Source: Amphiscolops sp. MND2022 (lineage: Eukaryota). Taken from it: a stretch of 64,000 nucleotides of DNA. The stretch is taken from assembly GCA_964187785.1 (NCBI GenBank), contig OZ076411.1, positions 89,652,001-89,716,000 of the forward strand, given 5' to 3'. Numbering within the stretch: position 1 is the stretch's first letter; each line of letters starts with the position of its first letter. The translations under genes were made by a program, and so were the position numbers. The notes below the pieces were generated by a model, which was not told the origin of the DNA, ran no database searches, and saw nothing but the letters and a program-made list of their open reading frames with translations. This document shows positions 10,440-61,705 of this stretch, one piece after another.

Positions 10440-10507
10440 ATGTCGAACGCATCCAATCAGCAGCTACAAATGGCACCTGCCCAAGACAACAGACCAATTT
10501 CCAATCA

Positions 10508-10556
<49 letters not shown>

Positions 10557-21986: not shown

Positions 21987-23811
21987 TGTCACAGCCCCAC
22001 CTGAGCTGTGAGTTCTGCAGCAGAGCCAACCCAGTCTTCGAACAATAAATTAGGAAATGGAAAAAGGAGAAATAAAAACAGAAAACCAGAAAAAAATCAG
22101 TCCAATCCATATAACCTGAACCAATGGCGCTAAACGATATGTGCAACATAATTGATTAAATAAATATATACTTACACATATATTAGTGTTTATACAATTA
22201 TACACAGACATATATTTACGTACTTACAGCATAACGGAGCTTTGGTGCAGTTAATAATAATAATATTACAGTGCTACAGTTAACAACATGTGAACCACAC
22301 CGCCTAACGAGCGACCAAACAATTTTATAGCGAGACTGCGGCCTGGCAACCGGCCTCAAATTCAGGCCGTGAAGCGCCGGCCTGGGACGCGGCCTGAGAT
22401 CAAACCACGCTGCTAAGCACAATGCGACTGAATTAAATGTGCTAATGAATACATGTAAACGTTTTAATAACCTCTGCAGTAACTAAATGACGATATGAGT
22501 GCAATTGTCCTAATAATAGACCTTTCATATTAAATGCACTAAATACGATGAACCGCGGCCTGGGACGCGGCCTGAAAATGATTATGTACCAAGTTAATTA
22601 TAAAAGTAGTAAACGTTGATGTTATTACGTAATTTTGTTCAGGAATAAACCTGGAGCTTATTAATTGTGTTCATGAATGATATTGTCGGTTAAATTTTAC
22701 ATATAATGATTTTTTTGCATGTAAATAGTGATTGATGAACTCCGCCTGGGCCCAGGATTTAGTTGTACACATTAATAACATGTATTTCCTATTCCCCGAA
22801 CTTGTTGCTGTTGAATTACGTTAACCATCGCCCAAGATGATGCTTTTCATAATATTCGTCACCAGTATTTATTCTTTTTCTCCTGAAGTAAATTTGTCCG
22901 TCCCGGACTGTGGCGTGGGGCTAATGCCTCGCAGCTCTCAGTCAAATCAGCCTTGTAAACATCGCATAAACTGTCCTACCTTCTCATTTACTTTCCTGTG
23001 TGCGATTTTGTTAGTCTAAAACTAGAACGATGCTACTTTTATTAATCTAATGAATATTCTTGTAAAATATTGACTGTCATTTTTTTCCAAATTCTCATAC
23101 TCAATTTGCAGTACTTTTGATGATTCATCACTTTCGCTTTCGCCAAGTTCAGCTTCGGCGTCTTGAAAGAGCGGGAAATTGGAGGCGAAAGGAAGCGGAG
23201 TCGCAACTCAGACAGGAAGTGGACGCGTGCTTTCTTCGGAAAGCATGAACAAGCTGAAGGTCTGAGTTCGACAAAGCGGAACTGAACTTCCGAATTCCCC
23301 GCTTGGGATGGACGCCGGACTGAACCGCATGTGAAATGTTGTTGTGTTTTCCCCGCTCTTCGGAGAGTGATAAGTATAAATATGTTGAAATTTGGAAGCC
23401 ATTATTAGTTGAAATTTTGTTTCGTTGCGAATTAATAACTTGCTTATTAAACGACAATTAACATTTTGCAATCCGCATTTTCTTTGTTCACCAGTCAGTT
23501 TGAATTATTTCTTAGGAAATTTCGAGATCAAATCCAAACAGTTTGCCTGAGCGAAGTTCTAAGAGGAAAGCCAGACGTGAATCAATCACGAAAAGTCGGT
23601 GAATAAACGGATTAAGGACACAGAAACCGGACAACGAGAAATACTAAAAATGATAGAAAATTTGTCTTCTAAAATAGTTTCGTTGGCTGACAAGACATCT
23701 TGCGATTTGAACCAGGGTTTAAATGGAGTAAACTCTGAAACTCTGAAAACGTAATACTAGAGAATAGACCCATAGGATTAAACGAATTCCAACAAGATGT
23801 CAGTCAACACA
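21987..23811 (+). repeat. 5' LTR of B (1825 bp)
   Basis: Direct repeat of 32553-34113; followed immediately by the PBS. Confidence 0.95.
23148..23324 (+). ncRNA. Predicted conserved cis-acting RNA structure in the LTR (copies at 33364-33540, 52351-52515 and minus-strand 7641-7805)
   Basis: Nested helices with G-U pairs and compensatory changes between families A and B; cUUCGg tetraloop at 23235-23238 and 33451-33454. Confidence 0.65.
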
Positions 23812-24926
23812 TGGTGACAGGAGTATCTCCCCAAACGGAAATACCGACCCGGTCATCAAGCTTGCCGCCTTCCCAACCAGAAATACCCGGACCATATAGT
23901 GGACAAATTGCTCGAATCGCTCCGCAATGTCACCCAACAGAACATCGGATTTCCCAGACTACCGAAGGCATTGTCAACAACTATGCCCACCTTCAACAGA
24001 CGAAATGACAAATTCGAGCATTTCGAAGACCTCTTCATGACAAGCCTCAAGGTATACCCTAACATCTCTGAGGAAGAACAAATCCATTACTTCCACTCCC
24101 TACTCAGGGATGAAGCACTCCAAACATATCGCAACATGACCGACACAAATCGTGCCAGCTTAGAGGACAGCATTGCCACATTCCGACGCAGATATGCACG
24201 CCCCCAATCCATCGCAACAGCCAGATGCAAATGGGAGCAACTCCACTTTGATCCCTCACGGCAAACATTCCCAGACTTTTTGGAACAAAACCAAAAATTG
24301 GCGCAAGAGGCATACGGAGAAAACGCCCCAAAATTCATAGAAACATCTTTCTATGCCAAAATGCCGATCCACTTAAAACGAGTCCTCAACCAAGCAAGGT
24401 TGGAAACAGAATCTTACGATTTGATGGTCCAACATTTGGAGAAGGAAATGGAATTAAACCGACTGTTGGCCCCCAACGAAACCAACATAACAGGTATACA
24501 TCAAATCGAAGTACAAGAAACACAACAAGCCCCAAACACTCCCAAACCGACAGGCCCATGCTACCGATGCGGACAACCTGGCCACATTGTCAAAAATTGT
24601 CGAAAAGTAGCCCGCGAAGCCCGCAATAGAGGCAACAGAGTACCTAACAAAATCGTCGACCCATGCGAACATGTGGCAAGAAGAGCCACTCAACGCAGAA
24701 TTGCTATTCAGGCGCAAACTGGGCAAACCGACCACAATGGTGGAAAACCCCAAAAACCACGCCCCCGAACAACATTCCGATAACCCCACAACAAGGTCAG
24801 TACGTAAAAGAAAACCCACAATTAACCCAACCCCAATATCCAAACCAGACAACCGGCCAAATGGGCTACCTACCCCCACCCGAATTGACAGCTCAATCTC
24901 ACGAACAAACCCATCTCAAAAACTAG
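23544..24926 (+). pseudogene. gag: gag of B (LTR-encoded start mutated to TTG; frameshifts; two CCHC knuckles)
   Basis: MPTFNRRNDKFEHFEDLF capsid-like region; CYRCGQPGHIVKNC and frameshifted CGKKSHSTQNC knuckles; ends ...HLKN* at 24926. Confidence 0.9.
23812..23824 (+). promoter_or_regulatory. Primer-binding site TGGTGACAGGAGT
   Basis: Begins exactly where the 5' LTR stops matching the 3' LTR. Confidence 0.9.
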
Positions 24927-27900
24927 TTTCGCCACATCTTCAGTTTGGGGAAATTGTCGAAACCCGACATTTCACAACATCGGAGCCCCCAATCACGTAC
25001 GATCACGAAGAACACAATAAGCGCTGTGAACAACCATCTCTCGACTGGCAACGAAGATGGCAAATTCACAAGCTCCACAAATACAACCGTCAAACTGCGA
25101 CCAAAAAAGACTACCCACACTGGTACATTGACAACCCGACCGACTACAATACCCCAAAACGACCCCTACCTGAAAGCACCTCCCCCGAAGCCTACATCCA
25201 TAACCCCGACTTCAACTGCGACCCGTACCACAATCCCCAACTTTATGACAGAGAAACATTAACCTTTAGACAGAGAGAGTGCACGCCATTTGAGGAATAC
25301 ATCAAGAAAACAGGAATGAACATCTCAACAGAGCCACGTCACAGACCAAAAACTGTCCAACCTGTACCAGATTACGACCAAGATGTAGAGCCTGTGACAG
25401 CAATATTAGTCGATAACCCGACTAACAGACCCAAGTCCATACTCAAAAATCAGGGATCTCAAATCACGGCCCCCCAATCGCCACCAAAAGGCCAACAAGT
25501 CAACCCTATCAGAGCCGGAATCTTACGATCCCCAACAATGGACGCGGCACCCGACTGCCACCAACACGAAAACACTACCTGCAGGACCACGACTGAAGCC
25601 GTGGACCTGGCCCAACCCACAATCAACAAGAAGACAACTCCCTCCAAACCAACAACAAGGAGGATCAAGAGGTCTCTACTTTTAGAGCCCCCCCCACCTC
25701 AATAGTCAGCCGCAAGATGAAGTTGAACTCACCCAACCCATCATGACTGACGCAACTAACATGCAGCCTGAATCACAATCAGGTGTTGCAAACAGCACAC
25801 CTCAACAGGACAGCTCCAGGTCCTACCCCTCAGAGCAGACTGCAGATTACCCGAGGCAAAACCATAGGGCCAGGGGAACCCCCAATCCCCTCTCCCAAAA
25901 CGACAGTCAGTCTGAAAACGAAGTCGAGGACCCTCGACCCATAGAGACTGCCACAACGAACATGCAATCTGGATCCCCCTCAGGTGCTGAAAACGACACA
26001 CCGCCACAGGACGAACCCCAGTCCTACCCTACGTCCCAGATTGCAAATTACCTCACATGGGAACCCGTGACCAACGAGCAATGCATCCCAATCTTCTCTC
26101 TCAGCAGTGACACTCAAGAAGAAGAAGAAAATGCCATTTGCTCCAATGGATTTCCAGGACTTAACCCTGGATGCCCTCATAGATTCCGGCGCCCTTGTTA
26201 ACTGCATTTCAGAAAAAGACTACAACAAAATCTTTCAAATGTCCCCCAAAGACATAGTTAAAAAATTGGAACCACCCCTTCAAACTTCAAGTCGCAAATG
26301 GCGACATCGAAACACCAACCAAGACAGTCATCCTCCGATTCGAAATAGGGGACTGGAACTTTAAAGAAACATTCATTGTTGCCAAACGACTGACAGGCCC
26401 AATACTCGGCCTCACTTTCCTCAAGAACAATAGTGCCATCTTGGATGTGAGTCAGGGCCTGCTCCACTTCCCTCACCTCACATATTCCATCGAAACTGAT
26501 GAGTATACCTGCAACCTAAAACTCTATAAAGTCCAAATAAAGAACCCACTTACCATACCTCCCGAGGCAACGCAGACAATCACTGGCTACACGGACATAT
26601 CATCCAGCATCGACACAACCGGTGTCATCAACCCAGCCACCAATCACTGTAGCGGTGACCCACTGGTGGTAGCCAGCTCAATATCAACAGCCTCAAGCCG
26701 TAAGATCGACGTCAGGGTGACCAACATCACCCCCACACCCTACACCATAAAAAAGAATTCGACGATAGCGGAGTTCAAAATTATGTCGCCAGAAGAAGCC
26801 AAAGAACTCAAACCAATCAACACAGCAGCACTCAAAGTGCTCACCGAAGATGATTCAGAAGACGCAATAGTCTATATCAATTAACTTCTAAAAACTTCTG
26901 ACAAAGCCTCCAACAACCAAAACTTTTGGTTCCCTACGCCAAATGACCCCGGGGACCCTATTACCCACACGCCGATCCAATGCCGAATATTGCGAGAAAT
27001 AAAAGAACTGGAAGACATTCAGAAACTAAACCCTACCAACAGCGACGAAGAAAGGGAGGCATTCCTCAAAAACTTCGAATGGGATGACACACAACTGTCA
27101 ACAGACGACCAAAAAGACATCGAAGAAACACTCATCGAGTTTAACGATATTTTTGCCAGGCATCCACTGGACATTGGAATCAACCACGATTTCAAAATTA
27201 AACTCACGCCGAAAACAGATGAACCAGTCTACTCACAGAGCTTGCCCTGTCCTAATAACCTAAAAGATGACTTGACAGTGGAACTGGCATTAATGCACTA
27301 CTTCGGGATCATAACAACCCTCCCATTCAGCAAACACGCCAGCCCGATCTTTGCCCTGCGCAAACCGAATGGCCGACTGCGCCTACTAGTGGACCTCAAA
27401 AAGATCAACAACTTGATCTCGGACGATTACATAAACAACAATCATCCGGTCAGCACACTAACCGATGCCGCGCAACACCTCGCTGGCAAGAAGTTGTTTT
27501 GCAAACTTGACTGCTCACAAGCGTACCACGTACTGCAGATGGCAGACCAGAAGTCCGTCCAACTCCTCGCCTTCAACTTCGCCAGCAGAACTTTCGCGTA
27601 CCTCAGACTGGCCCAAGGACTGAGCCGATCACTATCGTCCTTCTCAAGCTTCATGCGAGAATACCTGGACAAGGCAATAAAGGCGGACAAATGCGCCCAG
27701 TACGTAGATGACATTGGAATTGCCACAAACACTCCCGAAGAGTTGAAGAACAACTTGAGAGAGGTCTTCCAATGCATCCGCGCAGCAGGACTCCGGCTTA
27801 CAATGGCCAAATGTCAGTTCGGCGCCAATGAAGTCGAAATCCTTGGGCGAACAATCTCTCCATCGGGTGTGGCGCCCCAGACCCACAAAATACAGAAGTA

Positions 27901-30533
27901 CTTGCAAAAGCTCAAATTCCCCCGAACGAAGAAAGGACTTCAAAGATACATCGGATTTGTAAATTATTACAGAAACTATATCCCCCGATTATCAGAGAAG
28001 ATCGCTCCTTTCCACGAACTCATAAAAACTGACAAGCCAGCAAAAATCGACCAGGAACTTATATCCAACTTCGAAGCCATCAACAGGTCATTGGACAACG
28101 CGTGCGGACTTTGGCTCAAACAACCACTGCCAAACCGATAGTACGTCTTGATGACTGACGCCAACTTTAAAAACGCCGGATACGCCCTAATGACCGAAGA
28201 GGACCCAGAACAGAAGATCACTTCCACCAAGAAAACCTATGCCCCTGTAGCATTTGGATCCAAAACCTTCTCCCCATCACAATTGAAAATGTCAATTTAT
28301 GCCAAGGAGTTTTTGGCCATCTACTTTGCCTTCATGGAGTATAGCCATATCTTGTGGGGGTCCACCAAACCAATCATTGTCCTGACAGACAACAAGTCAG
28401 TCACGAGGTTTTTCCAAACCAAAATGATTCCACCCTCCCTGTGGAACGCCTGCGATTTTGTACTCCAATTTCACTTCAAATTCGCCCATGTACCGGGACG
28501 AATGAACACAGCGGCCGACTTCCTCTCCCGATTGGACATCAGCCCCTCAAAAAAGTCCTTCTCCAAATCAGAGAAGACATCCAAACAACACCCATCCAGG
28601 TGAATATCCAATCCTCCGACATTCACGAGGAAGACCAGTTCTACTTTTTACCAGAAGACGACTCCGAGATAGAAGAAGACATTTGGGAGCGAAAACAAAG
28701 AGCGCGCAAGAAAATATACAGCCCCAAGAACACCAAACTGACTCACCAGCCGCGACAAATGAGACAAACTCTCAAACGGAGAACTTACCATTAGTCTGCA
28801 ATAATATCCAAGACCCAGAACAAGAACAAAGGCGCCAACTTCACAGTGACACAAGTTTCCCACGTAGTCTAAGACCGCACCAGGACCAGGACCCCGTCCT
28901 CCGAAATCTCAAACTGAAAATGTTAAAGGAGCCATATGACACCCAACTTCTGAACGATGATCCCAGAGCAACCAAATACTTAACCCAAGAAGACAGAATC
29001 ACCATCAAAGATGGGCTACTGTACAGACAATACTTCGGAGACAATGGGAAAGTAAAATATCCACAGGTGCTACTCCCTCAACAGCTGGTCGACGAATTCA
29101 TCCAACACGAACATGGAAAGTATGGAAAACACCCAGGGATAGCCAAAACCATTCAACAATGCCGTGAAAAGTACTATTTTCTAGGACTCGCTGCAAAAAT
29201 AGCCAACCACATCTCACTCTGCAGAGAATGCGCCCAAACAAAGAGAACCCCAGACAGTTGCATCACACCACCCTTAATTGATATGTCACAACTAGCACTG
29301 GGACCTGAGGATGCGCTCCAAATGGACATAGTCCCATTTGACGACCCATCAGGTGGATACAATGCGGTTATTACAGCAATGGATATCTTCTCCCGATACC
29401 TCTTTGCATACAGTGTTACTAGAATTGATACCAGAACCGTCACCCGAGTCCTAATAGACATCATTACTCGACACAGCTACCTCCCCACAACCATCATCAC
29501 AGATAAAAGGTCCCAATTTGTAGCAGAATCCATGCAACAAATCACTACAGCTCTGGGAATCCAATTGAGGCATGCTACCACAAAACATGCCCAAACAATA
29601 GGTATCCTGGAACGAACTCACGCCTCACTGAAAGAGAGTCTCAAAATTGTGACAGGGGAAAGGCGTACAATGTGGCATCAATTTTTACCAAAGGCGGTAT
29701 TAAATTACAATACCTCATATCACACGTCCCTGGGCTGTGAGCCTAGCAGAGTGTTCCACGGAAGAGTCCCCTACAATGTAGTTGATCTGAAATACGGACT
29801 CAAAACAGAAAATCCTGCCCCAACCAACAGTGAAACTGCTGAAGGAGTGCTCCGACAGACAAAAGAAATCGTCGAGCAGACACAACAGTCACTGATGCAG
29901 GCCTACGTTCGCCACAAACTCTCTTACGACAAGAAGGCATCCGCCAACCCCTTGGTAGTAAACGACTACTGCTATGCATTGCATCCAAAGGCGCATAGCC
30001 AATCGACAAAACTGCCGTTCAGAGACTACCTTTGGACGGGACCATATATCGTGGTCAAGACTCTACCAAACAACAATTATTTAGTTCGAAAACTTCAGAC
30101 AAATCTCACACAGATCCTACATAGAATCAGGCTCAGACCATTTAAGAGTACACACAAACTGCCTGACATCTCCACACCCCTCAAGGAGTTCCAGCAAGAT
30201 AACGAAGTTATCATACAACATGACGACCTATACGCCTTAGCGTGGCAAGAGCTTTACCAAAAAGACCCTACCCATCTCGGAAACAGCCCGTCACCCGAAC
30301 CCAAATTGACACCGCCAAACACAGAAACAGCCGACGAAACCACCCACCCCGATCCATTGCCCGAACCTGAAAACATTAGTAATCACCCGGAAGCCCAGGC
30401 AGATGATCTAACCCTAGACATAGCCGATGAACACCCGCACCCACCTCTAAATCCCCCCGGAAATCAAAGTACAATCTTCGACAAAACCCGACCTCAATTT
30501 GGAAGCCGGATTTTGCCCACTACAACCCTATAA
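24917..30533 (+). pseudogene. pol: pol of B: unknown N-terminal domain, protease, RT, RNase H, integrase
   Basis: ALIDSGALVNC protease; 383-aa RT ORF with CKLDCSQAY and QYVDD; RNase H (MTDA, KEFLAI, TDNKS); 616-aa ORF with H2C2, D-D-E residues (QMD, ITD, ERTH) and GPY motif; a few stops and frameshifts. Confidence 0.95.
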
Positions 30534-30811
30534 AAGTCAATCCAAAAAACTCGATAATCCTGAATCACGGGCCAGACGACATCCCAGAAATACAAGTTTT
30601 AGCGGACCTCGGTCCTTCAGAGTCTCTGTCCGCTCAGCCCGAGCAGCACTCCGGGCGAGCATCACGCACTGGGCAGCAGACATCATCATGGGCGACCCAG
30701 GAGAAACAGCCTTCAGACCCACTGAAAATACACGAAGCTGAAGTACAAGTCAACCGTACATTATTTACCCAGTCCAACACAACAAAACGACCACTAAAGA
30801 AAACGCAATCA

Positions 30812-31792
30812 TCAACAAAATAACAGCCTCATTTCAACAATACCTTTTTCCCAGTCGTTGTACACGACCGAAGGCTCCAGTCCGATTGCATCACGTCCAT
30901 GTTGCGTCCGGGACGTCTGGACACCCTCCTCAGCAAGCACAGATGCCGGGTCACTCTCAACAGCAGGGGTATCAATTGCCTTCTCACAAATGAAAACGTC
31001 GCTGCCACTGGAGGCAACAGCCCGAGGCACAACAGAAGCCTGCATCCCGATCATAGGAGTTGGATCAGGGACTATGAAACAAAATGAAAAGTATGCACAA
31101 GAGAACAAAACACATGCACCTAGCCTAGCACCCTTTTTCAAGCAACTTTAAACCAAGGAAGAAAGATGACGGAATACCTACTTTCAAGAGGAGGAACGTA
31201 GTCATCTCCAGAACTATCAACCAGAGTAGGTGGCCTGGCAATGGCTCCAGTCACTACATCTGCCAGTCGTACCCGCTTAGCAGACCGCACACTACTCGTC
31301 GACAGAAACCGACTAGTCCGTTGTTTTGAACTGCTCTGAGATTTCGTCTGGCTAGGGGGGACATATTCTTCGTCACTCTCATCATCAGTAGCTACAAAAA
31401 GTGGATGAAAAAGAATGCGTTCAAAGAAACCTAGAAAAGGTTGGCCACCTATCAATTTCTAAGAAAAGCTTACCTTTCTTCCTTGCCAGGTAGTCCAGAT
31501 CATGACGCTCCTCACTACAAGTCGAGTGGTAGGACCCAGTCTCCAAACAACTTTCACCATCAGAGTGCCCAGGACCCTCATCTCCAGAACTGTCCTTCTC
31601 GCCAAAACCATGACCAGCAGAGACTCCACCGTCACTTGCTTCTCCACCGTCCTCCTTTGTGCCATCCACAGACACTTCTCTACACTCACGGACAACTGAC
31701 TCAACCACAGACTCAACTTCCGCTCCACTCTCGACTAACTCCGCTTCACGACTGCGGTGCAACAATGCACTAACTTCTTCAGTGGAACACAT
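30812..31792 (-). pseudogene. Putative antisense accessory ORF of B (~330 codons after two frameshift repairs; acidic, Ser-rich)
   Basis: Minus-strand ORFs 31421-31798 (ATG at 31792), 31138-31455 and 30812-31141 abut and overlap; removing one T at ...RFL*/ERIL joins the first two; repeated DEEYVPP/GDDYVPP motif. Confidence 0.45.
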
Positions 31793-32050
31793 AATCAATT
31801 CTCTGAAAATAACAAACCATGAAACATAAAAAGAAGATGTGGCGTAAAATCAATGGAAATATCAATACTAGAAGTTATCGACTATATAAGGAGAGTTGTT
31901 CAGTCTGCCAGCTGAACAATTCAAAAAGCTCAACACAAATGGTGTGAACAAATTTTCAGGACGCGGATTAGTCAGTTATATTCCTAATCAACTGACAATC
32001 AGCTTGCTAATCAAACAAAATGTACAATTCCAACTCAAGCGATCAAACGA

Positions 32051-32614
32051 ATGAAGACGTCTTTATTCTCGAACGAGATCAGCCAGTACAACCAAGACAG
32101 GCCCAATACACCGCCGTCTAATTATAATATTATCAACCCAACGCAGCTTACTATTACTTATGAAAGATTTAAAACGGAAGATCTATACGTCGTCCTTGTC
32201 CATGAACAACTGCTTGAGAATGCAATTAACGCTGAAAACGAACAAGGAGTAATACGAAGATTTACTACAGACAATCCGGTTATACCAGATGATGAATTCG
32301 TGAGCTCAATCAGACGGTCCAATCAAGCAGACCAATACAGACCTGATTATATTTTCGACAGCCCTATGAGCTCGATCAGTGAGACCGACAGCAGCTCAGA
32401 AGGCTACTGGTCAGGCAGCAGTTGGGAAAGCAGCTCTTCATGGCGATCATACGATTCAATGAGAGACGACCTCACTACGCTATTTGATACACCGATACGA
32501 TCCATTTCCCAATTTCTTGTTCCCGAGGGAACAGGGCAAAGAAGCCGAGGACTGTCACAGCCCCACCTGAGCCGTGAGTTCTGCAGCAGAGACAACCCAG
32601 TCTTCGAAGAATAA
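32051..32614 (+). CDS. Uninterrupted 187-aa sense accessory ORF of B that reads through the PPT into the 3' LTR; product unknown (acidic, Ser-rich)
   Basis: ATG to TAA without lesions; last ~20 codons lie inside the LTR. Confidence 0.55.
   Translation: MKTSLFSNEISQYNQDRPNTPPSNYNIINPTQLTITYERFKTEDLYVVLVHEQLLENAINAENEQGVIRRFTTDNPVIPDDEFVSSIRRSNQADQYRPDYIFDSPMSSISETDSSSEGYWSGSSWESSSSWRSYDSMRDDLTTLFDTPIRSISQFLVPEGTGQRSRGLSQPHLSREFCSRDNPVFEE
32527..32552 (+). promoter_or_regulatory. PPT-like purine-rich tract before the 3' LTR of B
   Basis: GGGAACAGGGCAAAGAAGCCGAGGAC directly 5' of TGTCACAG; interrupted by pyrimidines. Confidence 0.55.
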
Positions 32615-34113
32615 TTAGGAAATGGAAAAAGGAGAAATGAAAGCAGAAAACCAGAAAACAATCAGTCCAATCCATATAACCTGAAACAATGGCGCTAACC
32701 GATATGTGCAACATAATTGATTAAATAAATATATACATACATATATATTGGTAATTATACAATTATACACAGACATATATTTACGTACTTACAGCATAAC
32801 GGAGCTTTGGTGCAGTTAATAATAATAATATTACAGTGCTACAGTTAACAACTGGAGCTTATTAATTGTGTTCATGAATGATATTGTCGGTTAAATATTA
32901 CATATAATGTTTTTTTTGCATGTAAATAGTGATTAATTAATAAACAAGCCTGGACCTCAGCCTGGGCCCAGGATTTAGTTGTACACATTAATAACATGTA
33001 TTTCCTATTCCCCGAACTTGTTGCTGTTGAATTACGTTAACCATCGCCCAAGATGATGTTTTTCATAATATTCGTCACCAGTATTTATTCTTTTTCTCCC
33101 GAAGTAAATTTGTCCGTCCCGGACTGTGGCCTGGGGCTAATGCCTCGCAGTTCTCAGTCAAATCAGCCTTGTAAACATCGCATAAACTGTCCTACCTACT
33201 CATTTACTTTCCTGTGTGCGATTTTGTTAGTCTAAAACTAGAACGATGCTACTTTTTTTAATCTAAAGAATATTTTTGTAAAATATTGACTGTCATTTTT
33301 TTCCAAATTCTCATACTCAATTTGCAGTACTTTTGATGATTCATCACTTTCGCTTTCGCCAAGTTCAGCTCCGGCGTCTTGAAAGAGCGGGAAATTGGAG
33401 GCGAAGGGAAGCGGAGTCGCAACTCAGACAGGAAGTGGACGCGTGCTTTCTTCGGAAAGCATGAACAAGCTGAAGGTCTGAGTTCGACAAAGCGGAACTG
33501 AACTTCCGGTTTCCCCGCTTGGGATGGACGCCGGACTGAACGGCATGTGAAATGTTGTTGAGTTTTCCCCGCTCTTCGGAGAGTGAAAAGTATAAATATG
33601 TTGAAATTTGGAAGCCATTTTTAGTTGAAATTTTGTTTCGTTGCGAATTAATAACTTGCTAAGTAAACGACAATTAACATTTTGCAATCCGCATTTTCTG
33701 TGTTCACCAGTCAGTTTAAAATATTTTTTAGGAAATTTTGAGATCAAATATAAACAGTATGCCTGAGCGAAGTTCTAAGAGGAAAGCCAGACGTGAATCA
33801 ATCACTAGTTCGGTAGATGAGCCAGAGTGTTCGAGCATGAAGACGGGAAACGTCCCCAGCATTTCCGACAAAGACTTTGCTGATTTGACAGGAAAAAATC
33901 GTAAGTCGGTGAATAAACGGATTAAGGACACAGAAACCGGACAACGAGAAATACTAAAAGTGATAGAAAATTTGTCTTCTAAAATAGTTTCGTTGGCTGA
34001 CAAGACATCTTGCGATTTGAACCAGGATTTAAATGGAGTAAACTCTGAAAACGTAATACTAGAGAATAGACCCATAGGATTAAACGAATTCCAACAAGAT
34101 GTCAGTCAACACA
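32553..34113 (+). repeat. 3' LTR of B (1561 bp)
   Basis: Direct repeat of 21987-23811; preceded by a purine-rich tract; followed by the TSD. Confidence 0.95.
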
Positions 34114-34301: not shown

Positions 34302-35455
34302 CAGTGCATGAACAACAATTTACGGCTTGCTAGTTAAATGTATAAAATTTCTAGGAAGCGTGAAAAAATCTTACTTCCGGTCACTGTTAAAACATTATTA
34401 CGTTTAGAATGGTTAAAAGAACGTCTCAAGAACCCCTTAAGGTCGTTCTTTTTCGAGATTTGGGCCTATTCTGGGAGAAAATTTGAGAGAAGATACGTAT
34501 TTCAAACAAATCAACGGCTCAAACGATCAATAAAAGCTACCTGAAAGTTGGCAGTGTAGACGACGCAAAAAGGAGTGGCAGACCTCCGAAATTGATACGT
34601 AAAGATCAAAATTGGCTGCGAAGAATTGTTTGAAAAAACAACAAGGCATCGGCAGAAAAAATCGTGTTCTATTCAACAGTTTCATCATGAAAACTGTATC
34701 TGCAAAGACAATTCGACAAAATTTGCTCACAATGGACCTTGTAGGCCGTGCCGTTGCGAAGAAGCTTCAAATGAGAGCAGAATCCCGTGTTAATTGACTG
34801 CTCGGGGCAAAGCAGAGACGTAATAGGACAGGGGAGGAGTGGAAACGCCTTGTTTTTAGCGACGAATGCAAGTTTTCTGTGAAGAGTGATGGACGAGTCT
34901 TTGTCTGGAGGACCACTGGTACTCGGTACAAGCCAGAGAACACAATCGAGACGACAACGTCGCGATTTTCAACGAAGTTTTGGGGCTGCATAAGTGGCAA
35001 AGGGTCTCGAGTTTTGTTGAAGACCCCAAAAAGATGCAAGAGTGCAGACTATATTGATATGCTGAAGACGCCAGGAACCGACACGTTGGGCTATGACCAG
35101 TTTTTCATGGATGAAAACTGTCTCATCAATCGATCGAGTGAAGTTAAGCAGTGGCTTCATGACAATGGTATTGCGAAAGAGTTCTGGTCCCATACAGCCC
35201 AGATTTCAACCCCATAGAAAATGTTTGGGCCCAAATGAAGAGGGAAATCAACGCAATGCACCTAACCCCGGAGACCATCGAAGAAGCAGTTTATTATGTT
35301 TGGAATTCTGTTAAGGACTCTTTCATCAAAAAAGTTTATTCTTCTGTGGCCAATCGTATTTCACAATGTATTGGAAACCATGGTTTTTCAAAAAATACTA
35401 GATATGCGTTTTTTTGAAAATTCAACTGGGGCTGTGAACTTTTGTACATGCATTG
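34302..35455 (+). mobile_element. Tc1-like (Tc1/mariner) DNA transposon, decayed transposase
   Basis: TA|CAGTGCATG... and ...CATGCATTG|TA degenerate ~27-bp TIRs; motifs GRPPK, FSDECKF, FWGCIS and PYSPDFNPIENVW across frameshifts. Confidence 0.9.
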
Positions 35456-38400
35456 TACGTAATTAGAGAAAGTGTACCGTAGTCACTTACTGCATTTAGA
35501 TCACTGCGCGTAACGCCAAATCACAAAATGTAACAAGCAGCTAAACACGTAACGCGTATTTGAAATAATAACACGTTTTTGTTGGCTGTTAATGGAACGA
35601 GCAAGATAGATCTTGCTAGTTCGTTGTACAATGTCGCAAACGCTATTCGACAATCGTAAAATGTATAGATATATTTTTAAAAGTGTCATTTTATTTCAGA
35701 GGATCATTGTATGAAATAAATGTTTTATTGACATTCTTTCTACAAATAGAGGCTTCTATATGATCCTCTATTCTCAGTAATTGGACGAGCAACTTGTGCA
35801 ATCTACAAGATCCTGCAAACAAGGAATCTCTACCCCTTTCCCGTTAGCTCGTTCCGTTGCATCTTATTCCCATCAAAGCCTGAACGGAATGGGAACTACA
35901 TTTGTCTCGCTCATGAATAACACCTTGTAGTATCACGTGCTTCAAACGTATTCTTTTTTATGTCCTTAAAGTATCACGTGTCGTGTACTTCAAACCCGTT
36001 CACATATCTATCTTGGTAGAATCAGGTCTCGTTCGGTCCAAGCAGAAACTCAACGAGTGAACGTGTCCACCAGCCATGGTGGTGCTCAGTTGCCCCATTG
36101 AAGGGTGTACCTACGCCACGGGGGATATTGAAGCGACTCGAGCTATCACACTTTTCACGGTGCACGGGTATTCACTTGCCCCCGACGCCTGTCAACAGGC
36201 CAAACCCGAAAAATTGTCTCGCCCAAAAGTGTCTAAAGAAAGCACGAGTGAAGACTGGGAATACTTCATCACCAGGTGGGACGCCAACAAGAAAGTCACA
36301 CGCACAGTTGACCACGATGCCACCTTAAAGCTCCTCGAATGTTGTGAAAAACTGTCTACGCAAGGATCTCCACCGCTCCCACTCAAACATCGCCATGGCA
36401 ACCGAGAAAGATGCTCTGGCTGCAATCAAGACTCTAGCCGTGAAGGCTGAGAACGCCATGGTGAGCAGGATGATCCTCTAGACAGGGACACGGGACAGAG
36501 AGGAGGGTGTTAGCAGTTTTGCCGCTCGCCTACGAGGTCAAGCTAAGGTCTGCAAGTTTCCGAAAAACTGCCCTCATAACCCAATAGAAGCAGTCAATTA
36601 CACCGACGACATGGTCCGCGACGCTCTCATTAGAGGACTTGGCGACAGCGACATCCTGTAAGATGTACTGGGACATAACGACCAGGACATGACCCTTGAG
36701 CAAACGATCAAGTTTATAGAGGCCAAGGAAGCTGGTAAACGATCACAAGCAACTCTCAAGAACCCGAGTGCTGCGACAGTATCCTCGTATAAACAGGCGG
36801 ACCAAGACCAAAACGTAGTCAAATGCCGAAATTGTGGAAGACCAGGCCATGATGATGGCCGCGAGACACAGGCTAGGAAGGAGAAGTGCAAAGCCTGGGA
36901 CAAAATTGGATCCCAAAAGGATCGGTGGAAAAGATAAACACAAAAGGACCGTTGGAAACACAACGAAGTATGTGGATGAATCCAACACTGTCTTTCACAA
37001 ATTGTGCAACATATCGGTAGCCTGCACGGTCACCTCTCATAAACCCGGTCAACGGGCGGTCGTCCTTGACCACCACATTCTCGACGTCAAAAACGGCTGG
37101 ATCACGAGACGGTCGCCGCCCCAACCAACAGTTTTTGTCATAGCCCGCGCTCACACAAAAGACTATGGGAAGCTGGGGTACCGCCTTCACAAAAGGACAC
37201 GCCAGATATCACAACATGACAGCTGATACTGGTTGTCAATCTGTTTTAGTTGGGATCAAAATCATCCACAGACTGGGTTTCAAAAAATCGGACCTCATAC
37301 CCGTGAAAACAAAAATGTCGGCGGTGAATCGTGACGTCATCCCAATTTTAGGGGCTATTATCCAACGACTGTCCCGAAAATCGGGGTCTGGCAAAGTAAT
37401 AGAGACTGCACAAAAATATGCTATGTGATTGACGTTATAGTAGGTGCATACTTTAGTCAGGAAGCCTCTACAACACTGGGAATCATCCCAAGCGACTTCC
37501 CGCGAATCGGATCAGCCACTCAACAACCCATGTCAGTCAGTTCAGCTGCAGCAAGCCCACGCGACGAGGAGTGCGACTGCTCCTGCCCCATTCGCACCCA
37601 GCCGCCATCATAACCAACTGCATTACCATTCCCAGCAACTTTCGCAAATCGAGCCGCTCTACAGAATTGGATACTAGACAGATACAGATCCAGCACTTTC
37701 AACACTTGCGAATGCCAAACACTCACACTGAGTCCCGATCGCAGTCCACAAACCCATTGCAGTCCCTCTACACTGGCAACAGGAAGTGAAGGCGTCTATC
37801 GACAGAGATTCCAAACTCGGGGTTCTGGAGGCTGTCCCAGTTGGAGAAACAGTTACCTGGTGCCATCAAACGGTCACGGCTCGGAAAAAAACGGCAAGCC
37901 ACGACGCACAGTGGACATGCTGTCCGTGAAACACATCACACTCAATCCCCGTATCACCAGGCGACGCTGGTACCTTCAGGGACCACGAAGACGATTACCG
38001 ATGCTTGGAACGGGTGTCACAGTGTGCCAATCCGAGAAGAAGATCGCCACCTCACCAATTTCATCACGCCATGGGGTCGGAACCGATACAAAACTTGTCC
38101 ACAGGGCTACGCTAGTTCACAGGACGGTTACACCAGAAAATTCGACGAGATGGTCAATGACTTCCCCAACAGAAGCAAATGCATCAAAGACACATGCTTA
38201 TGGGCAGACACTCTCGAAGAGAGTTTCTTTCAACCGTGTCGCTGGCTAGACGTTGGCGGTCGACTCGGAATTGTTCAGAATCCCAAAAACATTGTATTTG
38301 GCTCCGACGCGGTGGAAGTTGCTGGTTTCGTCATCACTCCGACCGTCATCTCTCTGGCGCCTTTCCGCGAGCTTCTCAAGCCATCGTCAACGTTCTATTG

Positions 38401-39251
38401 GGATGATCAGCTGCAACAAGTTTTTGAGCAATCCAAGGCTGCTATATTGAACAAAATCACCGAGGGTGTCTGGATAATCGACTCCAAACGCGTCACATGT
38501 TTGCCACAGATTGGTCCAAGAAAAGCATCGGTTTCTGGCTCTTGCAGAAGTACTGCACCTGTGAGGTCATCACTCCTATCTGTTGCTCAACGGGATGGAA
38601 AATAGTGTTCGCTAGTAGCAGGTTCCCACACCCAGCAGAATCAAGAAAAGCTCCTATTGAAGGAGAAGAATTGGCTGTTGTTTATGGATTGGAGTCCGGC
38701 CGTCACTTCGTACTCGGTTGCGACAACTTAGTGGTAGCTACTGACCACAAGCCGCTACTCGGGGTTCTCAACAACCGACACCTCGGCGATTTCAAGAATG
38801 AAAGACTATTGTCACTCAAGGAGAAGACGCTACCATACCGGTTCTCTATAATTCATATACCCGGCGAGAAACAAAAGGCGACGGATGCAAACTCAAGGAA
38901 ACCCACTGGTAATGCTTCCTTAGGATAGTGATTTCGAGGAGTCGGACTCCATCGCTTGTATTGAACCGCGTCTCCGCGATTCTGAGGCCACCATGACGTG
39001 TGAACCCGACACATCAATTGATCCGGAAGAAAAGCTTGCCGTTGCTGCGGCCACCAATCTCGGCGACATTCGCGCCGTTACATGGGCCGAGGTCCGAGAA
39101 CACACCCTACGCGATGACGATCTTCAAAATCCCAAAAAAAAGATCGAAGACGGTTTCCAGGGCATTACCTCATGATTGGATCTTGCCTCGGGTATACGAG
39201 ACTTCTTCCAATTCAAGGATGGACTCAGCACAGTGGATGGAGTGATTGTAT

Positions 39252-39464
39252 CCCGGCCAAAAGACACTAGATTCAGCCCAGGAAGTCATGCAGGTGACAC
39301 CTTGATGAGCAGAATGCAGTGTGCCTTTGATTAGTGCTCTCAGTGGTGATGGGATATGTTATCCCATCACCACTGAGAGCACTAATCATAGGCACACTGC
39401 ATTCTGCTCATCAAGGTGTCACCTGCATGACTTCCTGGGCTGAATCTAGTGTCTTTTGGCCGGG
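39252..39464. repeat. Palindrome with 105-bp arms, 3-nt loop and one mismatch
   Basis: 39252-39356 is the reverse complement of 39360-39464; the right arm is the integrase coding strand. Confidence 0.95.
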
Positions 39465-40266
39465 CATTACGCCGGCTATTGCCAACTTGAGAGCTCGGTG
39501 CTGGTCATGCAACGAGCGTGCGCCTAGTCAACCTCATGGCCCTTCGCTCGCGGCTCAGGCACCAGTTTACTCCTTCCAGTGCACCTGTGCGGATTACTTC
39601 GAGGACAAGTGCTGCAATTACATGGGGGTTGTGGACCGCTACTCTGGTTGGCCGATTGTGCAGCAATCACGAGTTGGTTCTTTGGGTCTTGTTAATTGCC
39701 TTCGCGAAGTTTTCGTCACATACGGCATTGCAGACGAAGTATCGTCAGATGGCGGACCTGAATTCACAGCCGAGGCGACACAACAACTGCTGTCAAACTG
39801 GTGTGTCCATCACCGCCTCTCATCTGTTGCGCTTACCCATTCCAACGGTCGCGCCGAGCTCGGGGTCGAGACCTGCAAGCGCATGTTCATGGACAACACA
39901 GGTCCGAACGGCGAGATCAACCTCGACAAATTTCAAAGAGGCATGCTTCGATACCGCAACACCCCTGACCGCGATGCCGGTTTGTCCCCAGCACAAATGA
40001 TCTCTGGAAGAACCATAAAGGACTTCATCCCCATTCTGCCTGGTTCAAATTGACCTCACAACAACTGGATAGAAACATGACGGGCCAGGAAAGAAGCAAT
40101 GCGTGCTAGAAATGTCTGAAATGCTGAACGCCTCACCGAACGCACGGTACGGTTACAACCCCTTAAAGTCGGCATCTTGGTCTTTATCCAGAACCAGACT
40201 GGTAACCATCCACTGCGATGGGATCGAACCGGCTTAGTGATCGAGGTGAAACAGTTCGACCAGTAC

Positions 40267-40479
40267 CATTGCAGTGCATAGGCAAGCTATTTTGTGCTTG
40301 TCGTGGAATCCGGGACACGAAAATTCCGCTGCTTGTCCGTGGAATGCTTGTTTGTGGAATCCGGGACTTACGACGTAATTTGCCAATTTTGCACAGTTAA
40401 AGGTATGGTCGTGGAATCCGAGGTATTGAAAGCACAAATTGCGCTTTGAGCAAATTAAGCTTGCCTATGCACTCTAATG
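40267..40479. mobile_element. ~210-bp MITE-like insertion in the integrase C-terminus
   Basis: 15-bp TIR core GTGCATAGGCAAGCT (40274-88) / AGCTTGCCTATGCAC (40458-72); interrupts FDQY|AVRVDG; internal GTGGAATCCG repeats. Confidence 0.75.
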
Positions 40480-43400: not shown

Positions 43401-44999
43401 TTAAGTATGGGAGGTTTGCTTTAAAATGTCAATGAGATTTGAAAAATTCATACGTCATTTTTTTGGAGTTTGAAGGCGTGTTGGTTGGAAAGAGAGTTGG
43501 GGGCAAAAATGTAGGGTGAATGAAAATAGGATAATTTAGCATCTAATATTCCTGCTTTTGAAGTATAACATCATTATCAATGGTTACTCGAAGATTAGTG
43601 GGAGGAAGAGTTGGTGAGTGAGGAGTTTTAAGAGTAGAATATTTTTTGAAGTAGTGGTTGAAATTGTTGTTAAGGAGGAGTACACGATGAAGAACATTAG
43701 TGTTTAGTATCAGAGATAGGAGTGATCAGAGTATCAGAAATCTGATTGTTATGGGTTGACCTTGAGTATTCGGAAATGTTGTGGGAAATTCCAAAGACAT
43801 CGGATTTGAGAGAAAGAGCAGAGAGAGAGAGAGAGTAATAAGTGAATAGTAGTACAACTGACTGGTATTTAGAGCGAGGAACTGTATTGGAGTGAAAACA
43901 AATTGAAAGTGAATAAAAAGTTTTTCACATTGAAAGCGGCAGGAAGAATAAAAGTTGGGTTGACTTTCAGGTGGGTGATTAATACTTGCATTGACAGGTG
44001 TTAATGGTATATCAATAAATTTGAGTGGTGGTGGTGTAGGGGGATATTAATTGGTTGATTGCCATACATTGTGTAACGTCGAAATATTAGGCGTAGTGTC
44101 AAAAGTAGTGTCATATCTGTTAATAAAAGAATTCAAATTAGGATGTGATTTTAACATTGACAATTGGGATTGTATAGGTGAAATTGTATTGCAATTTCTA
44201 TTCGTAGGAGGAATTGAATTATCTTCAATCGGTGGTCAAAAGGGGAGGGTTGACAGCTAATGCGGGATATGTGGAGAAGCATTATTAGGTAGGGTTAAGG
44301 TAGATAGCCGGGGGGATTCTATTTACATTTAGGGATCAATCCATGGGTATTCAAAATTTATAATTTTGAAAACGTGGTTTTTAAACTTCCTTTTGATTGA
44401 AAATTAGGAGGGCAACCTGAATTGTCATCAAAGTCAGATTCTACAGATTGAATCATTGCTTTGGTTGCGTTTTGCATTAAAAGATCGATGTAAGCTTAGG
44501 AGTGCATGAAAGAGGAACGAAATGAAGAGTGCAGTGGAGAAATAGTTCCGCATAGGTTTGAAGTACAACATGATTAACAAAGAGTCTACTGAATGCATCA
44601 GCAAACTTTCATGCGTAAGAAGGGTTAGGTTTAACAGATAGTCATGAAGACCATTTCTTAATGATTTATACGAGTTGATGGGACTAAATTTAGCAAGAGT
44701 TTTTACTCATAAATTTTTAGGTAATGGCTTTCCCGAGGAGTTGGAGTTGTAAAGTGTTATCGAAGTCTTCAGCAAGAAGAATCCAATTCGAAAAGGTTTT
44801 GAGTTTTTTTGAGAATAAATGCCTTTTCTTGAGCAGTAAAAGTGTTCGTGCTATAAGTAGTTTCAGTTTGTTTTGAGTTCGTGCTGATAGTAGTTTGAGT
44901 TCAAGTAACTGTGGAGAGTCTTTTCTAATACGTTCATGAGTGGGAACATAATTTTGATCAGTATCAGTATCAGTATTTTGCTAATTGGTTTCACAACGA

Positions 45000-53199: not shown

Positions 53200-53212
53200 T
53201 GGTGACAGGAGT
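53200..53212 (+). promoter_or_regulatory. Primer-binding site TGGTGACAGGAGT
   Basis: Same 13-mer as in A1 and B. Confidence 0.85.
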
Positions 53213-54247: not shown

Positions 54248-54254
54248 AAAAAAC
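54248..54254 (+). promoter_or_regulatory. -1 ribosomal frameshift slippery heptamer A AAA AAC (also minus-strand 5977-5983; C AAA AAC at 24917-24923)
   Basis: X XXY YYZ heptamer in gag phase, just before the gag stop; the -1 frame opens into the conserved pol N-terminus. Confidence 0.75.
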
Positions 54255-59829: not shown

Positions 59830-61705
59830 CTAACGCTTCTTCACAGGGGTCGAATCTTTCCCTCCTGTAGCTACCTCTTGCGACGCTCGTCGAGCTTCTC
59901 GTTTCTGCCTCAACATCCGGGTAACGTCACGGGAAGAAGTCGGGGAATAGGAAATAGCAACAAATAAAAGATAAGCCTGAGGAGACCCCGCAGACTCTTT
60001 ACTACCCCTGCCCCAAGAACGGGCAGCAGAAGATACACCAACTGACAACGGGAGACAGATGGATCCACAACCACTCCAGGCTCCACTGACGTTTGTGGAC
60101 TGACATCGGCAACGGACAAAGTCATGGACGATGATAATCCAGTAAGAGGTGGCTGACCAACACGACGACGCCACTCAGCAACTTGGTCCAAGTAATACTC
60201 ATCGAACCGGTCCCGCAAACCACGGTAGGATCCTATCGACTGAGTACATAAAGTGGCCGCCACGGAGCGAAACTCTCATTGTTCAGGAAGTCCTTCCCAA
60301 CAGCCAAAGTGGCTTTCAACTCAAGCAAGCAGTCTTTTGTCAACAATTCGCCGGAATCGAACCCAGGAGCAGAAACAAACGACTGCACAGCAAAGATAGA
60401 AGACAGCAAAGTCGTCTTGGGGACTTGAACACCACTCAGGGAGAACTCAACGACTGGATAATGCACCTCACAAGGAACAGCCACGAGCGAAGCCAACTGG
60501 ACCACATGAGACAAATTTCCACGACAGCCAAAAGCTTCAGACTGCTGCATGAACACGACAGTGTCCGTGATGGTATCAACAACACGTCGATTACGACGAC
60601 GAAGATCCACCAAGAAGGACTTGAAATCATTGCAAAGACTCTCAGCAACCACATTCGTCACACGCCCACACTCCTGGAAACATGCCATCATTCCACGAAA
60701 CAGTTCAACTGTATAATTTTCAGCAGAAAGGTTCTGGAAATTCGCCTTGAAGCACGACACCAAAAGGTGCAACAAGCCCAAAGGGGGCAACACCTGGTCA
60801 TCAGCCAAGACCATTTGATTCAAATCAGCTGCATTCTATTGCGACTGGCAGGAACAATTGACGACTCTTTCAGATAAGACTGGACATCAACCCAGTTGCA
60901 TATCAATTCCTCCAGCACTGCACATAAAGAAGAGAAGGGTACTGCACTCCGCTGAACACATCGACGTAACTCACCCAAACTCATAAGCCAAGGCTGATGT
61001 GATGCTTTCCCCAAACGAAGAAGGAGATAATCATTGATTGAGAAAGGGTCCAGGGATCCAGAGCTCCGACCAGAAGCCTCACGAACATGTTCTTTGAACA
61101 TCTCCTCAGAATACTCGATTATCAGAATTAGCACAGGACGACTATCAGCCTTACACCATTCAACGAAGTCATTGAACAGGGTCGACGAACACCTCCGCAG
61201 CCCCAACAGGAAGAACAGCTAACAAACGGGACATACAGGCAATCTCAGCGTCACAGATACCAGGCTTCACGGGCTTCAACAATACACAAACTTCGTGCAA
61301 ACTACCAACATTGCAACAAAGCACGAAGCATCGAAGACCATCATGATCCTCACTTAAACTGACGTAAAAATGAGCGTCCTTACACCAGGACTGCACACGA
61401 CGGATGATCAATGGATACAAAGTTTGAGTCAGAATGACAAGAGACTATCTTGCTCCAAGTCGTGTGAGCACATTCGGAATCAACTGGAATTGTGGTTCGG
61501 AACTGATTCCACAACCTTCTGAGGAAACTGTGAGACCCACCTCTTCGCAGGAGTTCAAAAAACCCCCTACAAGAGTGAAGGCACGAACGTTTGATGATAC
61601 CCCAACCAAGGAATCAACCTCATCTTCGACGAAAGGGTTCTTGCAACCAAGAACCACAGCTGGAATTTTTTCAATCTCGGCCTGTGACTTCCATTTGATT
61701 GTGTG
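59830..61705 (-). pseudogene. Antisense accessory gene of A2 (>=600 codons, 5'-truncated), product unknown
   Basis: Minus-strand ORFs 61445-61657, 61169-61420, 60820-61206, 60233-60823, 59910-60263 and 59830-60174 tile one reading path; the C-terminal part is conserved in A1 with a strong synonymous bias. Confidence 0.75.

Follow-up and report, generated by a model that had tools for sequence, protein, structure and literature searches.

The element in the window (the whole 64,000-nucleotide stretch of DNA that was analysed) is a real but decayed member of a large lineage of Gypsy LTR retrotransposons, and part of its interior has been deleted. We give an even chance to the reading that the fuller members carry an antisense, intron-bearing gene whose product, with a predicted hAT fold, is likely non-cutting and likely a nuclear regulator that binds DNA and maintains transcription of the element. 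The features in the window are:

21987..23811, plus strand: 5' LTR, 1825 bp, TGT...ACA
23156..23317, plus strand: long imperfect hairpin, conserved, ending upstream of the TATA-like box
23374..23382, plus strand: TATA-box-like GTATAAATA, in other subfamilies GTATATATA; putative promoter element
23543..24929, plus strand: gag, starting inside the LTR and running across the PBS; broken in this copy
23812..23824, plus strand: primer binding site (PBS), complementary over 13 nt to the 3' end of a host tRNA-Leu
24857..26105, plus strand: N-terminal extension of Pol, some 430 aa without a known domain; disrupted in this copy
24915..24929, plus strand: predicted -1 frameshift site at the end of gag; this copy departs from the heptamer
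26107..30613, plus strand: pol (protease, RT, RNase H, integrase), with stops and frameshifts, its end removed by the deletion
30612..30614: junction of the deletion of about 3.0 kb private to this copy
30613..30721, minus strand: predicted antisense exon 4, cut by the deletion
30844..31071, minus strand: predicted antisense exon 3
31182..31391, minus strand: predicted antisense exon 2
31474..31792, minus strand: predicted antisense exon 1, with its ATG at 31792 and an acceptor-like site at 31803
31793..32019: conserved spacer between head-to-head ATGs, a candidate two-way internal promoter judging from the alignment
32020..32614, plus strand: sense accessory ORF of about 198 aa that passes the PPT and extends 20 codons into U3, with a frameshift close to its start in this copy
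32535..32552, plus strand: PPT region, within the sense ORF
32553..34113, plus strand: 3' LTR, 1561 bp, TGT...ACA
60099..61684, minus strand: in a family A copy, a decayed segment homologous to antisense exon 5, at 35-40% identity by tblastn (E 4e-44 and 2e-28)

A sibling copy encodes a Pol with the Pfam order protease, RT, RNase H and integrase, as in Ty3/Gypsy LTR retrotransposons, and its best match among solved structures is Ty3 Gag-Pol (E 1.4e-50). The TG...CA LTRs, the tRNA PBS and a TSD within the 4-6 bp range likewise agree with Ty3/Gypsy. The two LTRs of the window element differ by 46 mismatches in 1452 aligned columns (3.2% divergence). A preliminary description had called the element TSD-bounded; the element is real, but its TSD is imperfect and matches at only four of five positions (TTAAC/TTAGC). 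Among the siblings, 13 of the 33 checked have a perfect 5-bp TSD, most of the others lacking their 5' end in the retrieved DNA. The PBS complement gave 833 pattern matches to host tRNA 3' ends against none for the control, one of four matching tRNA loci being called as tRNA-Leu(CAG), and the PPT is only moderately rich in purines. Among the matches listed there was no named homologue of the element's proteins, and an Rfam search of the element returned nothing significant. In the window copy gag, pol and the sense ORF each carry stops or frameshifts.

The segment missing from the window copy at 30613, which comprises the end of pol, antisense exon 5 and intron 4, is present in 18 of 20 siblings, and in seven of the 20 the antisense segment holds an open frame of more than 700 aa. 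A recombinant origin of the window copy was rejected, since comparison with the siblings shows a deletion. Independent deletions have removed the antisense segment from three of the sampled copies (the window copy, L013 and L024), while copies with a perfect 5-bp TSD and no gap are 15.3-16.6 kb long; the "compact" architecture reported for the element is thus an artefact of its private deletion. In a search of the genome, 39 of 60 matches among those listed spanned the query without a stop, and a first look yielded 11,900 candidates in this one genome. Thousands of candidate matches make the lineage a major component of the genome.

Coding sequence runs through both LTR junctions. The gag frame across the PBS is the longest open frame in 36 of 39 copies, and in 27 of the 39 its ATG lies 113-133 codons inside the LTR; it has no stops and saturated dS, the shifted frames having 12-24 stops. 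The earlier proposal that Gag begins in the LTR and continues across the PBS is therefore borne out, and conserved, in the siblings. The -1 frameshift at the end of gag is still a prediction, supported by a conserved A_AAA_AAC slip site in 39 of 43 copies; of the exceptions, two were not located, one is rearranged and the last is the departing site of the window copy. We rejected a conserved frameshift-stimulating stem downstream of this heptamer, as the folds differ between copies. What had been taken for an extra Pol N-terminal domain is a conserved extension (dN/dS 0.10-0.47), but not a demonstrated domain, because alignment to distant families covers no more than about 60-130 aa and a Pfam scan found no domain in it. 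At the other end of the element the sense ORF reaches 20-34 codons past the PPT into U3, in a single frame across copies and with a dN/dS of 0.09-0.14, as had been suggested from the window copy. Its product is acidic, rich in Ser, Thr and Pro, and has a SIM-like motif, for which the shuffle counts are biased because the pattern was written after the motifs had been seen; an Atlas search with this ORF returned nothing significant. An env-like role for the accessory ORFs was considered and set aside as unsupported, these ORFs having no match in Pfam and none at E<=0.001 in a viral fold library. The placing of both priming sites, PBS and PPT, inside reading frames, and the complex-retrovirus-like layout as a whole, are real and lineage-wide. 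Neither the introns nor the deletion nor the transposase-like fold was noticed in the preliminary description, which likely also put the hairpin in the wrong place.

Comparison of the copies establishes the position of the antisense gene, its reading frames, the conservation of its splice sites and the purifying selection on it. The antisense ORF of the earlier account does code on the minus strand, but instead of a single ORF it represents exons 1-4 of a longer gene, which in fuller siblings has five predicted exons with GT-AG introns, exon 5 being the main one, and a predicted product of about 1,120 aa. That the introns are spliced is suggested by their predicted sites, where GT/AG is kept in 199 of 208 observations, the figure for GT/AG elsewhere in the introns being 1433 of 1706; this contrast is modest among close subfamilies, in which introns are nearly as conserved as exons. 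All four introns are in phase 1, the internal exons measure 231, 228 and 129 nt, and between alleles exon lengths vary by multiples of three and intron lengths without constraint. The distant family D has three extra GT-AG introns inside "exon 5" in all three copies read, the first of them apparently common to family F. Purifying selection is confined to the predicted antisense frame, which has no stops: dN/dS is 0.07-0.20 in exon 1, 0.11-0.23 in exon 2, 0.18-0.40 in exon 3, 0-0.17 in exon 4 and 0.03-0.07 in exon 5. All families examined, the most distant at 63% RT identity, have the gene and the layout.

The antisense protein is predicted to have a Hermes-like hAT transposase fold. Its structure model (pLDDT 76.5) has an RNase H-like core and a helical insertion domain as in hAT transposases, over about 395 residues with an rmsd of about 5. 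All of the top 11 rows of a Foldseek search were Hermes (best E 5.8e-5), with a TM-score by query length of only 0.34; comparison of the model with Hermes gave Z 14.0 and rmsd 5.3 over 399 aligned residues, and in a wide fold search of 48,161 chains Hermes scored Z 12.9 and the next best Z 6.4. Pfam scans of the accessory proteins gave no match, including to Dimer_Tnp_hAT, DUF659, DUF4371 and TRP28 (PF04195), a PDB sequence search with the antisense protein had no match, and hhalign against seven host hATs returned a probability of 0.1%; only a language-model search gave leads, at 0.85-0.89, to hAT-type clusters. Near the N-terminus C24, C27, H44 and H50 are conserved at 94-100%, and their spacing (CX2C-X16-H-X5-H) fits the BED signature CX2CXnHX3-5H as given in the available text of PMC7471704, the N-terminal model having no match in the fold searches. 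Exon 1 carries basic NLS-like motifs and is 25% D/E.

We propose that an ancestral intron-bearing hAT transposase gene landed antisense in the element, where its introns would persist through reverse transcription because the spliceosome is blind to them on the genomic RNA. The acidic triad would then have decayed and the DNA-binding scaffold been retained, and a two-way internal promoter would drive both the antisense gene and the sense ORF. The antisense protein, with its acidic N-terminus, may bind element or host chromatin and, together with the SIM-bearing sense protein, may activate the LTR or counter silencing. A regulatory function of this kind is suggested by analogy with domesticated hATs, for instance ZBED1, which the available text of PMC7471704 describes as both a transcription factor and a SUMO ligase. 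The cassette occurs with different LTR types, a poor fit to tight recognition of its own LTR unless a shared block is the target. A bolder version, which we consider possible yet still somewhat doubtful, has an ancient Gypsy lineage domesticate a hAT transposase, intron-bearing, catalytically dead and antisense so that its introns survive, which with a SUMO-interacting partner and a shared two-way promoter would switch on or de-silence the element. Subfamilies would trade its alleles in what resembles an arms race between host and element, and recombination with the element's own reverse-transcribed mRNA would have removed 3' introns.

It is unlikely that the protein serves instead in integration targeting, where it would stand in for a chromodomain and tether the integration complex to favoured host DNA, even though the DNA-binding scaffold is retained, the transposase-like exon is under the strongest constraint and Pol has no chromodomain match in Pfam. 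In moving between subfamilies, cassette alleles do not follow gag, pol or LTR; integrases that are 99% identical are paired with exon 5 alleles that are 76% identical (AU p 4.8e-9), which argues for little co-evolution of the antisense protein with integrase, and the TSDs observed across copies are varied in sequence.

The conserved hairpin block 23156-23317 has a folding z of -5.19; over 19 copies its 45 pairs are paired in 98.5% of cells, and nine pairs show two-sided change. Its end lies 57 nt before the TATA-like box, a pattern present in 27 of 43 copies at 438-636 nt ahead of the PBS. This position makes it likely that the hairpin belongs to U3, hence to the 3' end of the genomic RNA, and the stretch downstream of the box folds no better than shuffles (z +1.54). 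The "structured LTR leader" described earlier, and with it a leader location of the hairpin, was accordingly rejected. The HTLV RxRE, which sits in U3/R, offers a parallel for a further reading, in which one accessory protein would bind the hairpin as Rex, Rev or CERV do and aid genomic RNA export or 3' processing. Pairing kept through G-U and two-sided changes, as for RNA structure, the expected place of the hairpin at the RNA 3' end and the precedent of Cer1 CERV (available text of PMC10309623) are consistent with it. We nevertheless hold this reading, too, to have a low probability: the two-sided changes come mostly from one split, family A versus B/C, 39 of 500 shuffles attain nine such pairs, D copies have a weak hairpin (-34 to -38 versus -65 to -99 kcal/mol), and a predicted BED finger suggests DNA.

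The antisense protein is likely without cutting activity. At the three expected sites, placed by strand order, secondary structure and hAT motifs rather than by residue-level superposition, we found no invariant acidic triad in 73 non-redundant rows; the W is kept (W320, conserved at 94%) and the R and CxxH are not. Host hATs, by contrast, show the usual D, TD, TRW and ER motifs. We consider it improbable that the protein is a nuclease or recombinase, still active or re-purposed, whose active site has shifted. The entire Hermes-like core is retained with W320, and acidic residues are frequent at columns 195-198 and 618-620, about two thirds of rows having one close to the first site and 20 of 31 one at the third; but none is invariant at the expected sites, the second-Asp position is mostly R or Q, and the longest inverted match between the flanks of the gene is 8-10 bp in all four copies.

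A nested intact hAT was rejected, as no TIRs were found around the gene in these four copies. There is very little chance that the gene is a passenger, either a functionless nested hAT insertion or one with unreal introns. Its introns are predicted from DNA and the segment has been lost independently in three sampled copies, but the reading is largely refuted by selection, with the dN/dS of exon 5 and in-frame exons across subfamilies, and by retention at 25-30% identity in distant families. At all 10 loci chosen solely for distant homologues, moreover, the gene stands antisense to Gypsy pol, which does not fit a nested hAT DNA transposon. Interchangeable unrelated antisense genes in families A and B, an idea that the movement of cassette alleles between subfamilies might favour, are refuted for these two families: 10 of 10 family A copies have an exon 5 homologue 43-47% identical, a sense ORF homologue 37-43% identical and, read by eye, the same antisense exon series. 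The exon 5 at 60099..61684 is the homologue of part of what the window element has lost, and the genes had seemed different because it was compared with exons 1-4 of the deleted family B copy. Family A does not, as had been thought, carry a different antisense gene, and of the proposed "swappable 3' module" what survives is that homologous cassette alleles recombine between subfamilies.

The preferred reading, a hAT-derived regulator, would make the lineage a natural case of introns preserved in a retroelement through antisense orientation, a principle also used in laboratory retrotransposition reporters. The intron differences between families permit the study of intron loss, and ORF-only annotation overlooks such a gene. 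Antisense accessory genes of LTR retrotransposons are described as of unknown origin and function in the available text of PMC7264820; here the predicted origin is traceable, to a DNA-transposon enzyme tamed by a retrotransposon.

A description of such an architecture was not found in the literature searched, which took in no subscription journals, Repbase, GyDB or supplements, and one may exist. Yeast Ty1 Gag also starts in the LTR, so that its PBS is coding, but Ty1 belongs to the Copia superfamily, has a short overlap and lacks an accessory module. Among complex retroviruses, HTLV has an antisense gene and the RxRE, foamy viruses an internal promoter with tas/bel2, and HIV has nef. Our lineage resembles them in its antisense gene, its sense ORF over PPT and U3, its candidate internal promoter and its structured U3; this is a likeness of layout for which homology is not claimed. 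No env was found, and the RT is closest to Ty3 among solved structures. The available texts treat the HTLV antisense promoter (PMC7264820) and internal promoters (PMC4402516). Cer1 with CERV (PMC10309623), Oikopleura Tor (PMC4402516) and the bdelloid elements with ORF3s (PMC5408684) are likewise animal Gypsy-type elements with extra genes that are spliced or use an internal promoter, but the extra genes are of env, esterase, exonuclease or export type, and the available texts describe none as transposase-derived. The plant elements Retand, Grande and RIRE2 carry antisense accessory ORFs with TRP28 (PF04195) or SMC domains (PMC7264820, PMC11963269), for which the available text of the review reports no similarity to other TEs (PMC7264820), and neither "intron" nor "hAT" appears in the available main text of PMC11963269. 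Unlike them, the gene described here has no PF04195 and has a predicted hAT fold and predicted introns. VANC of VANDAL transposons, an element-encoded anti-silencing protein from a pre-existing gene (available text of PMC13547354), is a model for the proposed function only, belonging to a plant DNA transposon and having a MAIN-like origin. With Hermes and ZBED1/DREF (available text of PMC7471704) the antisense protein shares a predicted RNase H-like core, a large helical insertion, a BED-type Cys/His signature and a conserved Trp, although no invariant DDE, no TIRs and no sequence similarity were found, and it would have been a retrotransposon, not the host, that tamed the hAT.

The copy at 21987-34113 is a decayed and shortened member of its family, and it lies among the following features of the window:

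21987-34113, plus strand: the family B element, with 5' and 3' LTRs of 1825 and 1561 bp (46 mismatches over 1452 aligned columns)
23812, plus strand: primer-binding site (PBS), a 13-nt pairing with the end of a host tRNA
756-8812, minus strand, and 51314-61700, plus strand: two family A copies, both decayed, that face opposite ways and are 84-85% identical
60099-61684: exon 5 homologue in the window's own family A copy
10431-11357, plus strand: TAZ zinc finger (PF02135) in two exons, downstream of a tract rich in Asn; probably a host gene of the CBP/p300 type, with retroelements beside or inside it
34798-35217, plus strand: DDE_3 (Tc1/mariner-like) transposase fragment, E 1e-4, under the Pfam cut-off
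35625-41222: decayed Gypsy-like element of small size, bounded by terminal repeats of ~136 bp; it keeps traces of RT and integrase and has a 213-bp near-perfect palindrome at 39252-39464
42000-50000 and 62000-64000: long regions of strong GC skew (+0.26 to +0.50) with few ORFs

By all features tested the element belongs to Ty3/Gypsy, and its Pfam domains run zf-CCHC, RT, RNase H, integrase. Its flanks read TTAAC on one side and TTAGC on the other. The tRNA end pairing with the PBS gave 833 pattern matches in the genome against 0 for a control pattern, and tRNA-Leu(CAG) was called at one of four loci tested. A tandem array at G000:C8 ~35.59-35.64 Mb holds several hundred matches to the PBS-fitting tRNA-Leu-like 3' end, spaced ~300 bp apart. 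In the family B copy the main gag match contains five stops and the RT region three, pol is frameshifted several times, and the sense ORF once, close to its start. The copy is also internally deleted, the end of pol being joined to position 30613. Genome searches took the 3' module as one query (40 of 362 candidates scored) and the integrase end as another, and in siblings the two lie ~3 kb apart; 18 of the 20 siblings read at length have the extra segment, seven of them with an antisense frame of >700 aa, and the other two carry different, independent deletions. The architecture is not "compact", as the preliminary description had it: this copy has lost ~3 kb, and ungapped copies with perfect 5-bp TSDs measure 15.3-16.6 kb.

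The minus-strand gene between pol and the 3' LTR is very probably a real, spliced gene derived from a hAT (class II DNA) transposase. In one sibling it has five predicted exons (319, 231, 228, 129 and 2462 nt) and four predicted GT-AG introns, all in phase 1, for a predicted product of ~1,120 aa. The window copy retains predicted exons 1-4 of the five, and these are what the preliminary description took for an antisense ORF. In 27 other copies GT or AG is kept at 199 of 208 splice-site observations, compared with 1433 of 1706 other intronic GT/AG dinucleotides; some misses are alignment shifts, because in-phase acceptors lie nearby in related divergent alleles. Between alleles, exon lengths differ by multiples of three and intron lengths by single bases. 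Counting against splicing, introns are roughly as conserved as exons at between-subfamily distance. In the predicted frame, dN/dS between subfamilies is 0.07-0.20, 0.11-0.23, 0.18-0.40, 0-0.17 and 0.03-0.07 for exons 1 to 5, all without stops, and ~1 or more in other antisense frames; the opposite-strand frame with common third positions shows the expected shadow of selection, with stops in exons 1, 2 and 5. When exon 5 was searched against the genome, 39 of the 60 matches listed (59 of 11,900 candidates scored) cover it without a stop. Predicted intron 1 (31392-31473, minus strand) differs between subfamilies at 1-2 of 81 positions, fewer than its flanking exons, which hints at a further signal overlapping it on one of the two strands. 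A candidate 5' UTR intron spanning the whole sense ORF could run from a GTAAGT donor-like site at 32792 (minus strand, within the 3' LTR), which some subfamilies lack, to an acceptor at 31803 (minus strand), 11 nt upstream of the antisense ATG.

Pfam, PDB sequence search and hhalign found no sequence-level relatives of the antisense protein, and the Atlas leads were hAT-type clusters with scores under 0.9. For the last 767 aa, an AlphaFold model built from 25 sequences (pLDDT 76.5) was compared by fold: the top 11 Foldseek rows were all Hermes, a hAT transposase (best E 5.8e-5), with Z 14.0 and rmsd 5.3 over 399 aligned residues. Across 48,161 chains Hermes scored Z 12.9 and the runner-up, also a transposase, 6.4. 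C24, C27, H44 and H50, conserved at 94-100%, match the BED signature given in PMC7471704, and W320 is conserved in 94%. The N-terminal domain model is confident (pLDDT 84.6) but had no solved-fold match in the fold searches. At the three sites where catalytic residues are expected, in a register set by strand order and hAT motifs, no alignment column is invariantly D or E; seven host hAT transposases differ in having the catalytic residues.

Family A had been credited with a different antisense gene. All ten copies fetched carry homologues of exon 5 (43-47%) and of the sense ORF (37-43%), and the one copy read from end to end matches in its five exons and their phase. Loci chosen solely for distant homologues (25-37%) were antisense to Gypsy pol in 10/10 cases, with LTR pairs in 7/10, and one family at 63% RT identity gave weak, collinear matches (E 1e-6 to 0.04, small peptide set). 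All three family D copies read have three extra GT-AG introns within a single exon of A, B and C; the first is apparently common to family F, the most distant by midpoint root only. Parsimony suggests that these introns were lost in the A/B/C ancestor, perhaps by recombination with reverse-transcribed mRNA. For one short-contig homologue the matches scored in the genome reach no more than 39%, a hint that the lineage occurs in another genome. Family F itself (L216/L217 and L218/L219) is young, high-copy and over 18 kb long, with 31 matches at 99-100% and a cluster of 1482 members; its antisense gene is a very divergent version with a different intron set.

What is swapped is the allele. One copy pair is 98-99% identical in RT/integrase and 96% in gag/sense ORF, yet 76% in exon 5; another is 88-95% identical elsewhere and 68% in exon 5. 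AU tests on the exon 5 alignment (18 of 39 rows, with groups defined from other genes after a quick exon 5 tree had been seen) reject both backbone groups (p 4.8e-9 and 8.7e-78). The gene family is constant, but its alleles move between subfamilies, so that the proposed swappable module survives at the level of alleles but not of genes.

The sense ORF does cross the PPT: in families B, C and D it continues into U3 for 20-34 codons without changing frame, and likewise in A; its dN/dS is 0.09-0.14. Its product is acidic and Ser/Thr/Pro-rich, with motifs that are SIM-like by a pattern drawn up after they were seen; an Atlas search with it gave no match. The sense and antisense ATGs point apart across a conserved spacer of ~230 bp, a candidate two-way promoter. 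As described earlier, Gag starts in the LTR across the PBS, 113-133 codons inside it in 27/39 copies and with the LTR portion under selection, and the slip site A_AAA_AAC, kept upstream of the gag stop in 39/43, agrees with a probable -1 frameshift. The Pol N-terminal extension is under selection (dN/dS 0.10-0.47), but just its first 60-130 aa are common to distant families. Between protease and RT, residues ~565-690 of the Pol of one copy (L112) are strongly constrained (dN/dS 0.03-0.04) and may be a degenerate dUTPase; two related Pols have a dUTPase match (PF00692). The LTR structure is real (z -5.19; 98.5% of cells paired; nine pairs with two-sided changes, mostly one family split), with 0/500 shuffles reaching the observed cells and 39/500 the pairs, and is weaker in D. 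It was probably misplaced as a leader: its 3' end lies 57 nt upstream of a TATA-like box (found in 27/43 copies), and no RNA structure was detected in the stretch folded downstream, so the hairpin is likely in U3.

The element would combine ordinary Gypsy replication with two accessory proteins. We give about an even chance to the whole reading, in which the antisense product binds DNA in the nucleus without cutting it and regulates the element by activation or release from silencing. That the protein instead directs integration targeting is doubtful, and RNA export through the U3 hairpin is doubtful to the same degree. A residual nuclease, set beside the hAT-like fold and the missing catalytic columns, is less probable again, and a mere passenger, given dN/dS of 0.03-0.07 in exon 5, is very improbable. 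Both the observation of a complex-retrovirus-like Gypsy element and its interpretation hold in part.

Ty1, HIV nef, foamy virus and RxRE offer parallels. In the literature covered we found no LTR element described as carrying an antisense gene with introns and a transposase origin. The plant elements Retand and Grande have antisense accessory ORFs, their origin being given as unknown in PMC7264820 and PMC11963269. Extra genes occur in animal elements, namely Cer1 (PMC10309623), those of bdelloids (PMC5408684) and Tor (PMC4402516), and VANC (PMC13547354) and ZBED1 (PMC7471704) serve as comparison cases. Set against hAT transposases themselves, the antisense gene departs in catalytic triad, TIRs and sequence profile, and is alike in predicted build.
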